A stretch of DNA of 20,447 nucleotides, taken from Thermoproteales archaeon. Lineage in GTDB: Archaea > Thermoproteota > Thermoprotei > Thermoproteales > Thermocladiaceae. The stretch lies in NCBI GenBank assembly GCA_027068725.1, contig JAMOMD010000467.1:1-20447 (forward strand), written 5' to 3'. Of this stretch, positions 37 through 11,655 are shown in pieces. A program made the position numbers and the translations under genes. The first letter of the stretch is position 1; each line of letters opens with the position of its first letter. The notes beneath the pieces are model-generated. The model was not told where the DNA came from, did not search any database, and saw only the letters and a list, made by a program, of their open reading frames with translations.

Positions 37-97
37 AAGGGTGATGATCTCCCTACTAGCTGAGTACTCCTTGATGAGAAGCCTCATTGCTGACTTC
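37..97 (+). ncRNA. C/D box sRNA (guide RNA for 2'-O-methylation)
   Basis: All four boxes are canonical and correctly spaced. C box GTGATGA is at 41-47, followed by a 12-nt guide TCTCCCTACTAG (48-59) and D' box CTGA (60-63). A 7-8 nt spacer leads to C' box TGATGA (72-77), a 12-nt guide GAAGCCTCATTG (78-89) and D box CTGA (90-93). A short terminal pairing is possible (G40-C94, G39-U95, A38-U96). The 12-nt box spacing is the archaeal rule. The exact ends are approximate. Confidence 0.75.
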
Positions 98-851
98 CAC
101 CTCCTGTAATTCCGGAAAATCTGTGCACTTTGAGCCACTGCACATACCATTCAGGTAATTTTTCGTACATATCCGTCAAGGGGTCTGGAACGCCAGCCTC
201 CATGAACGATCTTAATCGAGTTGTACAGGAAAAGCAAGTTCCACACGGTCTCTCTCCTCCCCTGTAGCAGCTCCAGGTCAACTCATACGGTACTCCAAGT
301 CTTACTCCTTCTCTAATTATGTCAGCTTTAGTCATATTCACGAAAGGAGCCCACACACAGATCTCCGCCTTCCTTTCTACCACCGCTGCGCTGCCTAGAG
401 CTACTGCCCTACTGACAGCCTCTACAAATTCTGGTCTTGTATCAGGATACCCCATTGTCTCATATCTGTGAACTGCAATACCGATCAGTCCACGAGAGTA
501 CCCACGCTCAAGTACTAGAGACTCAACCCATGCTGCTGCAAGTGCTATAAACACGAGATTTCGCTGAGGAACGTAGTCCCTGCTTACCTTAGATAGCTGT
601 ACTTCTACACCACCTTCGACAAGTCTTGATGCGTAAAACGCCCAGGATATTGACGATAAGTCAACTATCCTATGTTCAATAACTCCTGCAAGGGTACTCA
701 ACCTTTTAGCACACTCTACCTCCTTCCTGTGCTTTTGTCCATAAATTAGCGTTAATGCATAAACATCAGCATCAAGCTCCTTCTTAGCTTTCCAGAGTAA
801 AGTAGCCGAATCTAGGCCACCACTTAACAGAACTACACAACAAGTAGACAT
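84..851 (-). CDS. queC: 7-cyano-7-deazaguanine synthase QueC (archaeosine/queuosine precursor pathway)
   Basis: It has an N-terminal PP-loop, VVLLSGGLDSATLL. It also has a C-terminal Zn-binding cysteine cluster, WSCYRGGERPCGTCFSCTTRLRSF. Length is 255 aa. Confidence 0.85.
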   Translation of the reverse strand: MSTCCVVLLSGGLDSATLLWKAKKELDADVYALTLIYGQKHRKEVECAKRLSTLAGVIEHRIVDLSSISWAFYASRLVEGGVEVQLSKVSRDYVPQRNLVFIALAAAWVESLVLERGYSRGLIGIAVHRYETMGYPDTRPEFVEAVSRAVALGSAAVVERKAEICVWAPFVNMTKADIIREGVRLGVPYELTWSCYRGGERPCGTCFSCTTRLRSFMEAGVPDPLTDMYEKLPEWYVQWLKVHRFSGITGGGSQQ

Positions 852-4623: not shown

Positions 4624-6404
4624 TTCTCTACTCTGCTTTTCACGAAGAGAGCCATAAGTACTAAGTTGAGTGCTAGCGATACTCCAAGTATTATGCCTAC
4701 TATAACTCCTGTGATTACTCCCATTCCTCCAGATGCTACTATTGATGGGACGACGTAGGCCTCGTACCAGACTAGTGCAGAGGTCACGGTTATCCATAGG
4801 AATATTGCAGGCACTACTACTAGAAGTCTTGCTCCTGTGCTTCTGCAGATCCTGTATATCCACGCTGATATTACCATAAGTGCGAGACTTGCCAGTAGCT
4901 GGTTCATTCCTGAGAAGCTTGGCCATAGTATTAGGAATGAGCCATTCCACGCAAGTAGTAGACCTAGCAGGACTGCTATCAGTGATGCAAGCCACTTGTT
5001 CGATAGGGCATTCCTGATCTTTGGTGATCTTAGTCCAAGCATCAGCTCATGCCAGGAAAATCTTGCGAGTCTTGCAGCAGTGTCTAGTGAGGTTAGTGCA
5101 AATCCTGTTATCCATATTGTCGCAAATATTGTCATTGCCTTAATGTTGAGTCCAAATGCCTCGTGGACAGTCAGTGCGTATGATAATGGTATGACTTTCC
5201 ACTTTCCTAACGTCTTCAGCAGATACGCATACTTATCTGCAAATAGCTGTGGATTCGCGAGCATCTGCCTGATTAGGCTCTTCGTGGCTGGTGGAGCTAT
5301 CATGAGCATTGCCATGGGCACGAACGCTGCCATTGTTGCAACAACCATTGTTGCGAGAAAGCCCTCGCTTAACATGCCTCCATAAGCTACGAGTAGTGCA
5401 TCAAGCTCATTTGATAGCTGTTTTGACGTTGTTCCTGATGCTACAAGGCTATGAAATCCTGATAGTGCTCCACACGCGACTATGAGTGGTATACATGGCC
5501 AGAATGGAGTTGGCACGCCATGTATTATCCTTGGCATGAAGCTCGTGATTGCTGGAATCTCAGCTGGGTGCCATGCAACTACGGCAGCTGCACCACCTAT
5601 TATGAGGCTTGCCCATAGTATGAGAACGTTCGTGAAGTCTCTAGGCTGCAGCAGCAGCCACACGGGGAGGCTTGCAGCAATTATGCAGTATATGGCCAGT
5701 ATGAGCATCCATAGCTGACGTGTCGTGATGCCTATTGATGCGGCAATGCTCGTCATGAAGTGGCCGAACACGTCACCAAACATGTAGCCAAGTGCGACTG
5801 ATGCTATTACTGCCACTACTGCTAGTACTGTACCACCTGCAACTCCTAGTCTTGTCCTGTACATGACTGTGCCTACGAGCAGTGCAAATAGTATTAGCAC
5901 AATTGCTGCAAGACCACTGCCAGGAACACCTGTGAAGAATGCTGCTGTGACAGCGATGAATGCTGCAATTACTAGTATTAGCGCGAACCAGACGTAGAGA
6001 TTGAATATGTATGATGCCTTCCTGCCAAGTAGCTGACCAGCTATCCAGCTTATGCTTCTGCCCTCATGACGTACAGAAGCCATGAGGGACAAGTAGTCGT
6101 GCACTACTCCGATGAAGATGTTGCCAAACCATATCCAGAGCAGTGTTGGAAGCCAGCCCCAGGCAAGTGCAATTGCTGGCCCAACTATTGGTCCTGCACC
6201 TGCGATACTTGCAAAGTGGTGACCGTACAGTATTAGCTTTGATGTTGGTGTGTAATCAACACCATCGTACAGTCTATGTGCTGGAGTTATCTTGTCAGGA
6301 CTAGCCTCTACTATTCGTCTCTCTAGATACTTTCCATGAGTTAGGTAGGAAGCTACGTATATCAGGACTGCCAGTATTATGAACAGGCCTGTCGAGATTG
6401 GCAC
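4620..6404 (-). CDS. cstA: Carbon starvation protein CstA family transporter (peptide/pyruvate uptake family)
   Basis: This 594-aa polytopic membrane protein has the CstA N-terminal signature: TPAHRLYDGVDYTPTSKLILYGHHFASIAGAGPIVGPAIA. It uses a GTG start at 6404. Confidence 0.85.
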   Translation of the reverse strand: MPISTGLFIILAVLIYVASYLTHGKYLERRIVEASPDKITPAHRLYDGVDYTPTSKLILYGHHFASIAGAGPIVGPAIALAWGWLPTLLWIWFGNIFIGVVHDYLSLMASVRHEGRSISWIAGQLLGRKASYIFNLYVWFALILVIAAFIAVTAAFFTGVPGSGLAAIVLILFALLVGTVMYRTRLGVAGGTVLAVVAVIASVALGYMFGDVFGHFMTSIAASIGITTRQLWMLILAIYCIIAASLPVWLLLQPRDFTNVLILWASLIIGGAAAVVAWHPAEIPAITSFMPRIIHGVPTPFWPCIPLIVACGALSGFHSLVASGTTSKQLSNELDALLVAYGGMLSEGFLATMVVATMAAFVPMAMLMIAPPATKSLIRQMLANPQLFADKYAYLLKTLGKWKVIPLSYALTVHEAFGLNIKAMTIFATIWITGFALTSLDTAARLARFSWHELMLGLRSPKIRNALSNKWLASLIAVLLGLLLAWNGSFLILWPSFSGMNQLLASLALMVISAWIYRICRSTGARLLVVVPAIFLWITVTSALVWYEAYVVPSIVASGGMGVITGVIVGIILGVSLALNLVLMALFVKSRVEK

Positions 6405-6476: not shown

Positions 6477-8978
6477 CTAGTCCACGTAACTCACCTTAAC
6501 TCTTCGGTCACCATCAATGCGCTCAATCTCGATCAGCTCAACTGGAACATTCTTTGAACGTGCCTCCTGCACTATCTGATCAATGAACTCACGACTCTGC
6601 GATGTTATGACTAGCTGACTGACCAGCCTCTCAGTTATTAGCCTAGTTATTAGACTAGCAAACGCCTTCCTAACCTCAACATCTACGTAAGGTATTGGCT
6701 CATCCATTATTAGGAAGCTCACGTTGTGACTAGCGACTGAGTACACAGACAACATGAATGCTAGAGCAAGAGTTAGTCTCTGACCATCGCTCATTCTTGA
6801 TATTGGGACTTTTCTGCCGCCTCTCCTTATGCCATATAGAACGTACTCACTTACTAGAACTCCAAGGCGCTCGCGTGTACTTATCTCTATGCTTGCTCCC
6901 GTGAGATCAGGATGAGGATATATCATTCTGAAGTACTGATCAACAAGTGATCGTGTGCGCTCGATCATTCTCTCTCTAAGATCCTTCTGTATTTTCCTCA
7001 GGACATTCCTAATCGTGTTAAGTTTCTTGTAGAGATCTTCAAGCTTGTAGACTCTGTTCCTGAGCTCCTCAACAGTCTCAACAGGAATCGAGCTGAGAAT
7101 CTGCTCAAGCCTAGAAGCCTCAACACTAAGCGCGTTTAGCCTCTCGCGAGTCTGCTCAAGTCTTCTAGAGACTTCAGAAATCTCTTCCTCTAGACGAGAA
7201 GCACGAGAGAGATCAAAGCCCTGAGCACGAAGCTTCTGTTCAAGCTCCTTTTCCTCACGTAAGAGCTCTCTATACCTCTTGATCTTCTTCAAAAGCGTTA
7301 GTGCTTCATCAACCTTGTCTAATCTACTTCTAACTTCATCAATTAGAAATCTAAGTACCTGAGCACGCTTCTCAAGAAACCTTCTATTCTTATCAATGTT
7401 CTCAAGCTTTGCAACAACTCTACTATAGTTCTCTCTCAACATTTTCAACTTTGTATAGAGTTCCTCATACTCACTAACAATAGGCTTGAGACTTTCCATC
7501 TTTGCTAACACTTGCTCAAGCTCAGTAATCCTGCGTCTAGCATTCTCTATCTCATCAAGAACCTTCCTATGCCTCTCCCTCAGCTCCTCAATTCTTCTCT
7601 TCGCCTCCTCCCTATCCTTATCACTAAGCTCTCTACCACACACAGGACAAGTGTCTAGCCGTCCTGAAGCAATTGCCTGTAGTATAGTTATGATAGCAGA
7701 GACAACACCTACATCACTCGTAGTCTTCTCCACGAGCTCTCTAAGACGCTCAAGCTCGCTTCTGATAGCCTCAGGCTGACCATACTTATTCTCCAGCTCC
7801 TGATACTCCCTAAACTGACTTTCCAGCTCTCTAAGTCTTCTCTCAATATTCCTTATCTCACTACTAAGTCGCTCAGCCTCTACCTTAAGCTCCTCATGAG
7901 CCTTAGCAAGATTCTCCTTCTCTTCATCAAATCTCGATAAAGCATCTTCAAGACGCTTCAAAATATCATAAATTTTCAGCGCAGCTTCTTCCAAGTTCTG
8001 AGAGGTTATAGAAAGCTTGGCAAGCTCCTCAGCTTCCTTAGAGAAAAGCAACTCCTCTAATTTAGAAACTAGAAAACTCCTAATAAGATCAAGCTCAATC
8101 TTTATTGAAGTTTCAGAAACGTCACTCTCCTTACCACTTATCTCCTCTTCAAGTTTCTCACGCTCACTCCTAATTTGAAGATACTTAATGTATACATTCT
8201 CAAGATCCCTCAAAGACTTAAGAATACTATTTCTCTCCTCAATAAGCTTAGCATACTTCTTCTGAAGCTCCTCTTCAAGTTTCTTCAATTCTTCTATCTC
8301 CCTCTTTATTCTATCAAGTGCTCTACGCGCTTCCTCAACAGACCCATACCTTGATATTATCTCAGGAAGCTCCTTATAGGCAGATAACTTACTCTTCTCT
8401 TGCTCAAGTATCTCTTCTACTTTTCTGATTGGTATCGACTTGTATATATTTTCAAGTATATCTATGCCAAATAGCTTATCAATAGTCAAGCTTCTTCTCG
8501 TTGATGTACCATAGACAAGTCCTTCGAGAACTCTATGAGTTACTAGAATAAACCTCGAGAAATCTTCCTCGTCTAGTCTAAGTATTTCAGTAATGATATC
8601 TGTCACATCTCTAACAGTAGAGGCAACCTTCTTGCCTCCAATAACTAGCTCGACCTGATGCTCTCTGGCAGAATCACCAACTCTCTTAAGTGCACGCATG
8701 ACACGAAGCTGCTCACCCGTGTCCTCTCTTACTAGTGTCAACGTTACACGTGCCTCGGACTCCTCCTCATTTATCAGATCTGCGAGCTTTGCTATTCTCT
8801 CCTTAATCTCAAGCTGCTTACCGTATAGTGCATACTCTATTGCTTGGACTATGCTTGATTTTCCAGCACCTACAGGTCCGTAGATTGCTACTATTGGCCT
8901 ATCGAAAGGTATGCTAACTTTTCCACGAAATCCTCGGAAATTGATAATTTCGAGACTCTGTAACCTGTACTTGGTCAT
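6477..8978 (-). CDS. SMC/Rad50-like coiled-coil ATPase; arcadin-4 candidate
   Basis: Motifs are Walker A GPVGAGKSS (aa 34-42), about 550 aa of heptad-rich coiled coil and a central CPVCGR hook-like motif (C444/C447 of 833). A divergent signature MSDGQR and Walker B FLIMDEP follow. It is the last gene of the crenactin operon, with an ATGA overlap to the upstream small ORF. Confidence 0.7.
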   Translation of the reverse strand: MTKYRLQSLEIINFRGFRGKVSIPFDRPIVAIYGPVGAGKSSIVQAIEYALYGKQLEIKERIAKLADLINEEESEARVTLTLVREDTGEQLRVMRALKRVGDSAREHQVELVIGGKKVASTVRDVTDIITEILRLDEEDFSRFILVTHRVLEGLVYGTSTRRSLTIDKLFGIDILENIYKSIPIRKVEEILEQEKSKLSAYKELPEIISRYGSVEEARRALDRIKREIEELKKLEEELQKKYAKLIEERNSILKSLRDLENVYIKYLQIRSEREKLEEEISGKESDVSETSIKIELDLIRSFLVSKLEELLFSKEAEELAKLSITSQNLEEAALKIYDILKRLEDALSRFDEEKENLAKAHEELKVEAERLSSEIRNIERRLRELESQFREYQELENKYGQPEAIRSELERLRELVEKTTSDVGVVSAIITILQAIASGRLDTCPVCGRELSDKDREEAKRRIEELRERHRKVLDEIENARRRITELEQVLAKMESLKPIVSEYEELYTKLKMLRENYSRVVAKLENIDKNRRFLEKRAQVLRFLIDEVRSRLDKVDEALTLLKKIKRYRELLREEKELEQKLRAQGFDLSRASRLEEEISEVSRRLEQTRERLNALSVEASRLEQILSSIPVETVEELRNRVYKLEDLYKKLNTIRNVLRKIQKDLRERMIERTRSLVDQYFRMIYPHPDLTGASIEISTRERLGVLVSEYVLYGIRRGGRKVPISRMSDGQRLTLALAFMLSVYSVASHNVSFLIMDEPIPYVDVEVRKAFASLITRLITERLVSQLVITSQSREFIDQIVQEARSKNVPVELIEIERIDGDRRVKVSYVD

Positions 8979-9154
8979 TCTTCCTTGATCTCTATGCCAA
9001 TCTCCTTAAGTAAACCATACACTAAGTCACGCACCTTCTTCTGACCACCCTGCTTATATGCCTGATATAGCTGTTCTGCAAGTCTGTAAGTATCCTCGTC
9101 AGGTATCTCTCTTCTAAGAAGCTCAAGAACAATCTTATCAATTTCAGTACTCAT
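8975..9154 (-). CDS. Small 59-aa protein not in the ORF track; arcadin-3 candidate by position
   Basis: Hand translation gives MSTEIDKIVLELLRREIPDEDTYRLAEQLYQAYKQGGQKKVRDLVYGLLKEIGIEIKEE. Its ATG (9152-9154) overlaps the upstream TGA (9151-9153). Its TGA (8975-8977) overlaps the downstream ATG (8976-8978). Confidence 0.6.
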   Translation of the reverse strand: MSTEIDKIVLELLRREIPDEDTYRLAEQLYQAYKQGGQKKVRDLVYGLLKEIGIEIKEE

Positions 9155-9930
9155 CTCTCGCTAGCCTTCTTAGCAAGTATTTGAACCCATGGATTATCAC
9201 GCAAGAAATCAGGCACACCCTCACTAGGCGTAGCTCCTGCTTCCTGTACCGCCTCCTCAACCATGACAGGCTTTGCCTGCGGTTTCTCAGCAGGACTTAC
9301 AGTAGCACCAGTCTGAATACTTGTCTTAAGTCTCTCTATCTCTAGCTTTAGTCTATCAACAACGTTCCACAGACTATTCAACTCCTCTTTCAGCTCCTTC
9401 CCAATTCCGGATGTCGTAACCTTTGACTCGAGCTGACGTACTCTATCCTCAAGTGCCGAGATTCTTGTCTCAAGTATACGAATTTCCTGTATAATTTTCG
9501 ATAGCTGTTCATTAACTATCTCAGCTATTACTGGTCTAAGCCTATCAATACTCTCTATATCTACGACCTTTCTAATTCTTATAGCAGGGCTCGGAAGAAC
9601 CTCCACAACTGTTCCTTTTTCAAAATCAATACCAAGCACACCTATAGAGAGTTTTTTCAATAGTTTCCCATCTAGAAGATGCACATATTCACTCTGTAGT
9701 GCTACATATACTTTATTGAAATTGTTTCTATCTTTTGCAAGTTCCATTAATGTTGAGTTAAGTCTATCAACATCTGGAAAATCTTCGAAAAGTACAAGCT
9801 TTATGAGTACAGTATTGTCTCCCTCTCTTGCAAGAATCTCGTCTTCTCTAACGTCCTCTATTACTATGCCTCTCTCTCGTGCCCAAGATCTGACTATGGA
9901 TAGTGCCTGTTCCTGAATTAGTGAAGACAC
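9151..9930 (-). CDS. Coiled-coil protein immediately downstream of crenactin; arcadin-2 candidate
   Basis: The 259-aa architecture has four parts. A globular N-terminal region spans aa 1 to about 125, and a coiled coil spans about 135 to 205. A Pro/Ala/Glu-rich linker follows, then a C-terminal amphipathic peptide, VPDFLRDNPWVQILAKKASER. It uses a GTG start. Position and architecture fit published arcadin-2. Confidence 0.6.
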   Translation of the reverse strand: MSSLIQEQALSIVRSWARERGIVIEDVREDEILAREGDNTVLIKLVLFEDFPDVDRLNSTLMELAKDRNNFNKVYVALQSEYVHLLDGKLLKKLSIGVLGIDFEKGTVVEVLPSPAIRIRKVVDIESIDRLRPVIAEIVNEQLSKIIQEIRILETRISALEDRVRQLESKVTTSGIGKELKEELNSLWNVVDRLKLEIERLKTSIQTGATVSPAEKPQAKPVMVEEAVQEAGATPSEGVPDFLRDNPWVQILAKKASER

Positions 9931-9979
9931 GAGTCTCAGGATAGTGTGCTAGTGTGGAGGTGTTAACCCTATCGATAAC

Positions 9980-11655
<1,676 letters not shown>

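Follow-up and report, generated by a model that had tools for sequence, protein, structure and literature searches.

Box C/D sRNAs of the Thermoproteales have been described as 110 families in Pyrobaculum (Lui et al. 2018, PMC6009581). These families have RUGAUGA and CUGA boxes, an internal C'/D' pair and 12-nt guides. They include dual guides to rRNA sites less than 100 nt apart, they frequently overlap protein genes in 3' antisense, and their genes are gained, lost and relocated between close relatives. The locus that we describe here shares these traits. It lies near the left edge of a 20,447-nt stretch of archaeal DNA, the whole of which we analyzed and refer to as the window. Unlike the Pyrobaculum families, it carries guides that match no curated Rfam sR family at the gathering score, and its host is an uncultured archaeon whose aIF2-gamma is only about 58% identical to that of Pyrobaculum.

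Eukaryotic box C/D snoRNAs provide a more distant comparison: they function in a homologous RNP (fibrillarin, Nop56/58 and Snu13/L7Ae) and obey the same fifth-nucleotide rule. By this rule, fibrillarin adds a 2'-O-methyl group to the target nucleotide opposite the fifth base of the guide, counted upstream from box D or D'. Unlike the eukaryotic snoRNAs, the archaeal form is shorter and symmetric and both of its guides are active; unlike those snoRNAs that are encoded in introns, the sRNA at this locus is an independent gene.

The predicted sRNA occupies positions 37-97 of the forward strand, its ends being approximate, with a core that runs from box to box at 41-93. Read directly and with a regular expression, this core is GTGATGA/TCTCCCTACTAG/CTGA/GTACTCCT/TGATGA/GAAGCCTCATTG/CTGA, a length of 53 nt. 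The C box GTGATGA (41-47) fits the RUGAUGA consensus and is followed by the D' guide UCUCCCUACUAG (48-59) and the D' box CTGA (60-63). The 8-nt spacer between D' and C' (64-71) leads to the C' box TGATGA (72-77), the D guide GAAGCCUCAUUG (78-89) and the D box CTGA (90-93). A sequence-only reading of the locus had claimed four perfect boxes, two 12-nt guides and a D'-C' spacer of 7-8 nt, and all of this held: the boxes are perfect, both guides are 12 nt long, and the spacer is 8 nt, or 7 nt if C' is taken as TTGATGA. The terminal stem is weak. Its putative halves, AGG at 38-40 and CUU at 94-96, offer three possible pairs only (G40-C94, G39.U95 and A38-U96). The minimum free energy fold of the sRNA was no better than that of shuffled sequences (z = -0.17), as is expected because kink-turns lie outside the folding model.

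Strict and relaxed versions of the C/D expression, run on both strands, each returned a single match in the 20,447 nt, namely the sRNA at 41-93. Under a mononucleotide model the chance expectation of the strict motif in the window, both strands counted, is 2.5e-7, and the motif appeared in none of 3000 first-order Markov simulations. Against Rfam, the sRNA reached the gathering score of no family. The Pyrococcus family RF00095 (snoPyro_CD) nonetheless aligned with it end to end over 37-96, boxes and spacing included, with 28.6 bits, where the gathering threshold is 45 (E = 0.023, whole-window E-value mode), and this was the sole C/D-type Rfam match across the whole window. The guides and the phylum differ from those of RF00095; the sRNA resembles the class rather than this family. 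Scores below threshold are normal for such an RNA because the curated families are guide specific. We also built a sequence-only covariance model from nine neighboring and related C/D sRNAs; dominated by the guide sequences of its members, it matched the focal sRNA only in fragments (4.5 and 3.7 bits). We conclude, with a probability of about 85%, that the window encodes a dual-guide archaeal box C/D sRNA at approximately 37-97 of the forward strand. It has all the features that define archaeal box C/D sRNAs at the sequence level save a convincing terminal stem, with target complementarity judged on the rRNAs of relatives, and it is a previously uncatalogued but otherwise ordinary member of a well-known class.

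What might the two guides recognize? The window itself contains no tRNA or rRNA genes that we could find, and within it the complements of the guides gave self-antisense matches and chance matches with two mismatches only. The target search therefore covered 120 Thermoproteota rRNA blocks, retrieved through a crenarchaeal 16S anchor, all of them from relatives and none from the host lineage; a scan of viral contigs with the 16S anchor gave no matches. The sequence-only reading had called for a search of both guides against rRNA and had expected at least 9-10 bp of complementarity, with the target nucleotide opposite the fifth base. Run on the nearest relatives, the search led to two sites in domain I of 23S rRNA that lie less than 100 nt apart.

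The D' guide pairs over 12 of 12 positions (10 Watson-Crick and two G.U) with UUAGUAGGGGGA, and so exceeds the expected complementarity on related 23S rRNA, with the target opposite the fifth base. This sequence is present in 48 of the 65 Thermoproteota 23S blocks that cover the site, including those of Vulcanisaeta, in the context GGAAACAUC-UUAGUAGGGGGA-GGAAGAGAAA. By alignment numbering the site corresponds to 202-213 of E. coli rrlH, with U206 opposite the fifth guide base. It forms the 3' strand of a domain I hairpin, whose 5' strand covaries with it: the strands are CCCCC/GGGGG in most lineages and GCGGG/CCCGC in Pyrobaculum. When the D' guide was shuffled, 48-82 of 5000 versions (about 1%) found an equally good match anywhere in a 5.2-kb rRNA operon. 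The D' guide is thus predicted to direct a methyl group to the equivalent of 23S U206, a conserved site in domain I.

The D guide pairs over 11 of 12 positions with GAAUGGGGCUUC, by 10 Watson-Crick pairs and one G.U, and the one mismatch falls next to box D. We found this pairing in the Thermoproteales-type 23S sequences L072, L025, L042, L080 and L119, Pyrobaculum and Thermoproteus types among them. The site corresponds to E. coli 117-128, with G121 as the target nucleotide. It fits best in 23S of the Thermoproteales type, the group to which the host is related. Against Vulcanisaeta and many Desulfurococcales 23S sequences the D guide forms 9+1 pairs with an internal mismatch, and in Vulcanisaeta and most Desulfurococcales the site has one or two internal mismatches. 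An alternative site at the 5' end of Thermocladium 16S rRNA, GGGUGAGGCUUA, offers eight Watson-Crick and two G.U pairs, and we rejected it as a poorer fit than 23S. From the pairing in related rRNAs, the D guide would direct a methyl group to the equivalent of 23S G121.

The two sites are separated by 84-95 nt in 23S, with the D site upstream. When both guides were shuffled as a pair, matches for the two within 200 nt of each other arose in 0-16 of 5000 trials in each of five operons. The rRNA with the best fit for both guides, L072, is 92% identical to that of Vulcanisaeta. The sequence-only reading had given the targets as the exact complements CUAGUAGGGAGA and CAAUGAGGCUUC, and this part of it stood incompletely. 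Two 23S fragments of metagenomic archaea, L130 and L131, carry CUAGUAGGGAGA at the D' guide site; hence the perfect complement of the D' guide is a natural variant of the site. Related rRNAs carry UUAGUAGGGGGA and GAAUGGGGCUUC, and the differences from the exact complements are absorbed by G.U wobbles and the one mismatch next to box D. The exact complements may not be the true target sequences. A metagenome scan for GGAAACATCYTAGTAGGGAGA returned one chance match and four 23S fragments, all four from other archaea of lower GC content.

Have these sites been assigned to other guides? A comparison of the C/D sRNAs of seven archaeal species includes a 23S alignment that carries predicted-target labels for Ignicoccus hospitalis (Iho), Methanopyrus kandleri (Mka) and Pyrobaculum (Pca) in the two 100-column blocks that contain both of our sites, the labels being placed here to the block and no finer (Dennis et al. 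2015, PMC4644070). Judged by eye, Iho sR449 (CUCUUCCUCCC), Iho sR58 (CUCCGGCAGGAG) and Mka sR90 (UUUUCCUC) appear complementary to 23S sequence adjoining these sites. The core of the D' guide, CTACTA or CCCTACTA, occurs in none of the sRNAs listed in that work. Hence, no guide to this site in an identical register is catalogued there.

We infer that the RNA is transcribed, assembles into an RNP and guides methylation, and how precisely it pairs with the host's own rRNA, as follows. The C/D pair would fold as a kink-turn and the C'/D' pair as a kink-loop, and the two would bind L7Ae and then Nop5 and fibrillarin. Each 12-nt guide would pair with pre-23S rRNA for methylation by fibrillarin: the D' guide on the 3' strand of the domain I hairpin, E. 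coli 202-213, to give Um206, and the D guide on E. coli 117-128, to give Gm121. A single RNP might in this way hold on to two stretches of the 23S 5' domain that lie close to each other while it folds. Most dual guides directed at rRNA do target sites within 100 nt of each other, which has been read as a folding-chaperone role (Lui et al. 2018, PMC6009581), and a review says likewise (PMC7994747). The guide pair described here, as matched to related 23S, fits this usual archaeal pattern of sites less than 100 nt apart.

The host is an uncultured, Thermoproteales-related archaeon of a hot spring, and Vulcanisaeta is its nearest named genus. Identity of aIF2-gamma is 64-66% with Vulcanisaeta, about 60% with Caldivirga, Thermocladium and Thermoproteus, and 58% with Pyrobaculum. 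We place the host with the Thermoproteales because its aIF2-gamma is closest to that of Vulcanisaeta and because the window has a crenactin cluster. The window is metagenomic in origin, and the same QueC is found on two Logan contigs, L001 and L002, which run beyond its left edge. L001 differs from the window at 7 of 7500 positions and L002 at 5 of 4557. One of the seven differences in L001 is the only strain-level change in the sRNA: position 41 is G in the window and in L002 and A in L001, so that the purine of RUGAUGA is kept.

These contigs place the sRNA next to others of its kind. The intergenic region between queC and a DUF553 gene holds two further canonical C/D sRNAs, about 58-210 nt to the left of window position 1 (L001 7559-7608, reverse strand, and 7665-7713, forward strand; also in L002). 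One reads ATGATGA/AGCAGTCGACCA/CTGA/CTTGT/TGATGA/CAGGTCGTCAGG/CTGA, and the other GTGATGA/GCCATCCTGCTT/CTGA/CCTG/TGATGA/AAGCCGACCATA/CTGA. On the same strand as the focal sRNA, the D box of one neighbor ends 98 nt before the focal C box; the other neighbor lies on the opposite strand. Two guides of these neighbors resemble a variable region of 16S rRNA at +495 to +540 from the anchor; none of the 120 Thermoproteota rRNA blocks contains a perfect match to the neighbors' guides.

A relative with an 85% identical QueC, represented by L003 (GCA_054041175.1) and L004, retains the gene order S24e-queC-intergenic region-DUF553 and both neighboring sRNAs with near-identical guides (L003 5860-5909, reverse strand, and 5974-6022, forward strand; also in L004). 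The focal sRNA is absent from this syntenic locus in both contigs, and the stretch from the upstream sRNA to queC cannot be aligned with the window. It is likewise absent from the corresponding loci of L135-L139, from relatives with 80-85% identical aIF2-gamma. In those with 84-85% identity queC lies elsewhere and the locus holds only a homolog of the upstream sRNA, directly after S24e and on the same strand as it, with guides ATCTGTCGACCA and A/TAGGTCGTCAGG (L135 9033-9084; L136 and L137 8980-9031). Because this homolog sits at the S24e locus in relatives that lack queC there, the upstream sRNA must predate the focal sRNA, and the locus has been rearranged. Absence of the focal sRNA from the syntenic locus of a relative that keeps both neighbors points to a recent, lineage-specific gain or relocation of its gene at the 3' end of queC. 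The sRNA has no cross-species conservation of the kind that could demonstrate purifying selection.

The gene at whose end the sRNA lies, queC, encodes a 7-cyano-7-deazaguanine synthase of 255 amino acids (PF06508; 84-851, reverse strand). The convergent overlap of the D box and the last guide bases with the end of queC, which the sequence-only reading had described, is borne out in detail. The D guide contains, at 84-86, the complement of the stop codon TGA, and the S-Q-Q codons, complementary to 87-95, cover the D box. The coding sequence spans sRNA positions 87-97, for an overlap of 14 nt once the stop codon is counted; the stop and the four codons before it are antisense to the sRNA, and positions 84-89 of the D guide are antisense to the stop and the last codon. 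The sRNA fits the 3'-antisense, CDS-overlapping category, which is defined by a convergent protein gene that overlaps by at least 5 nt from the sRNA 3' end and reaches the D guide (Lui et al. 2018, PMC6009581).

The QueC tail differs as well. QueC has 255 residues in the window and 247 in the 85% relative, and the alignment of the two stops at residue 241. The tail VHRFSGITGGGSQQ, residues 242-255 (window 84-128, reverse strand), has no counterpart in the 247-residue ortholog. Since the orthologs align only as far as residue 241, the 14-residue tail is specific to the host species. The antisense strand of the sRNA gene, apparently a recent gain, now supplies the stop codon and last codons of queC. 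The UGA stop lies opposite the fourth to sixth bases of the guide, counted upstream from box D, and the fifth-base rule applied to the D guide points at the G of this codon (window 85). At position 84, the guide U that forms the G.U wobble with related 23S also encodes the A of UGA on the opposite strand.

Does the sRNA have its own promoter? A TATA-like element, TTAAAAATA, lies at 10-18 on the forward strand and is a candidate archaeal promoter. The upstream box that the sequence-only reading had noted is confirmed: 22 nt lie between it and the C box, and its center is about 24-27 nt before a predicted start set 1-4 nt ahead of the C box. It is identical in L001 and L002. The spacing is right for an independent archaeal promoter, and we infer that TTAAAAATA serves as one, from which the sRNA would most likely be transcribed. 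The alternative is read-through from the C/D sRNA that ends 98 nt upstream on the same strand. In that case a functional sRNA would be cut from a longer transcript begun at or beyond its neighbor, and TTAAAAATA would be incidental A/T-rich spacer. TATA-like motifs accompany only about 20% of archaeal C/D sRNA genes, and clusters, documented with two or three genes as TATA-bearing sRNA genes also are, are often cotranscribed (PMC7994747). Against this stand the good TATA-like octamer at the expected distance from the predicted 5' end and the fact that the upstream sRNA has an A/T-rich element of its own at a similar distance. We therefore regard processing from a longer transcript as possible but doubtful, and transcription from TTAAAAATA as the better account.

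Perhaps the main business of the sRNA is instead with queC? One or both guides would then be orphans with respect to rRNA, and the RNA would act in cis on the 3' end of the queC mRNA, affecting termination, stability or decoding of the stop codon. By construction the sRNA is a perfect complement of that end, its D guide would by the fifth-base rule place a methyl group on the G of the queC UGA, and the fit of this guide is imperfect in several related rRNAs. Antisense regulation and mRNA methylation have been raised for 3'-antisense sRNAs, and guides that overlap coding sequences are often orphans (Lui et al. 2018, PMC6009581). However, any convergent overlap yields cis complementarity, from which function does not follow, and only 14 nt of the sRNA overlap the queC coding sequence and stop. 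Both guides, moreover, have good 23S sites less than 100 nt apart, an arrangement unlikely to arise by chance. To our knowledge, mRNA methylation by archaeal C/D RNPs has not been established. We consider a primarily cis-acting role improbable. To a combination of the two roles, in which the sRNA methylates 23S while its D guide also 2'-O-methylates the G at window 85 or acts there as plain antisense, we give very little credence; if it were true, the sRNA would tune the termination or stability of an archaeosine-pathway enzyme, and the guide U at 84 would be a compromise between the 23S wobble and the A of UGA. It is very unlikely indeed that the motif arose by chance or is a dead copy, a pseudogene neither expressed nor assembled. 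Conservation limited to near-identical strains, a score below the Rfam gathering thresholds and the weak terminal stem would suit a dead copy, but decay would be expected to degrade the C' and D' boxes first. The four perfect boxes, the exact 12-nt spacing (expectation 2.5e-7) and the paired rRNA sites for both guides speak against either origin.

As a dual guide to 23S rRNA, the sRNA leaves the current understanding of C/D RNPs unchanged. For an uncultured, Thermoproteales-related lineage it adds one well-defined guide RNA, whose predicted Nm sites are the equivalents of U206 and G121 in 23S. Its locus is a clean natural example of the fluidity of archaeal C/D genes, the sRNA being present in the window and missing in the 85%-QueC relative, and its insertion would have rewritten the C-terminal tail and the stop codon of QueC. 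Points of modest interest are the apparent recent gain, the rewritten QueC tail and a stop codon at a predicted methylation position.

Several side observations were made on the retrieved sequences. L072 (JALWDJ010000095.1) is a 6.3-kb contig with an archaeal 16S-23S operon in a metagenome-assembled genome (MAG) labeled Campylobacteraceae, and it is evidently mis-binned. A chimeric query of 23S 5'-domain antisense open reading frames (ORFs) retrieved at least 68 "proteins" of 257-466 amino acids from a protein database (P0241-P0308; contigs L140-L143). They are antisense ORFs across the archaeal 23S 5' domain, and these 68 entries are spurious gene calls; the contigs L140-L143, which account for two of them, are not of the host lineage.

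The loci of related MAGs contain more C/D sRNA candidates, at 9114-9163 in L005 and L006, 9096-9146 in L007 and 3735-3784 in L138 and L139. One of these candidates reads ATGATGA/ATGCCGAGTTCG/CTGC/.../TAAGGCACCTCT/CTGA, and the one in L138 starts at the last base of an enolase ORF. Within the window, positions 6477-11655 of the reverse strand encode an SMC/Rad50-like protein of 833 amino acids, a 259-residue ORF, an actin-family protein of 436 amino acids and a 120-residue ORF. This block looks like a crenactin-type cytoskeleton cluster: an actin-family/SMC-like pair together with Arcadin_1 makes up the crenactin cluster typical of Thermoproteales. In L135 and L136, the same SMC/actin block adjoins Arcadin_1 and Alba genes and directly abuts the aIF2-gamma gene.
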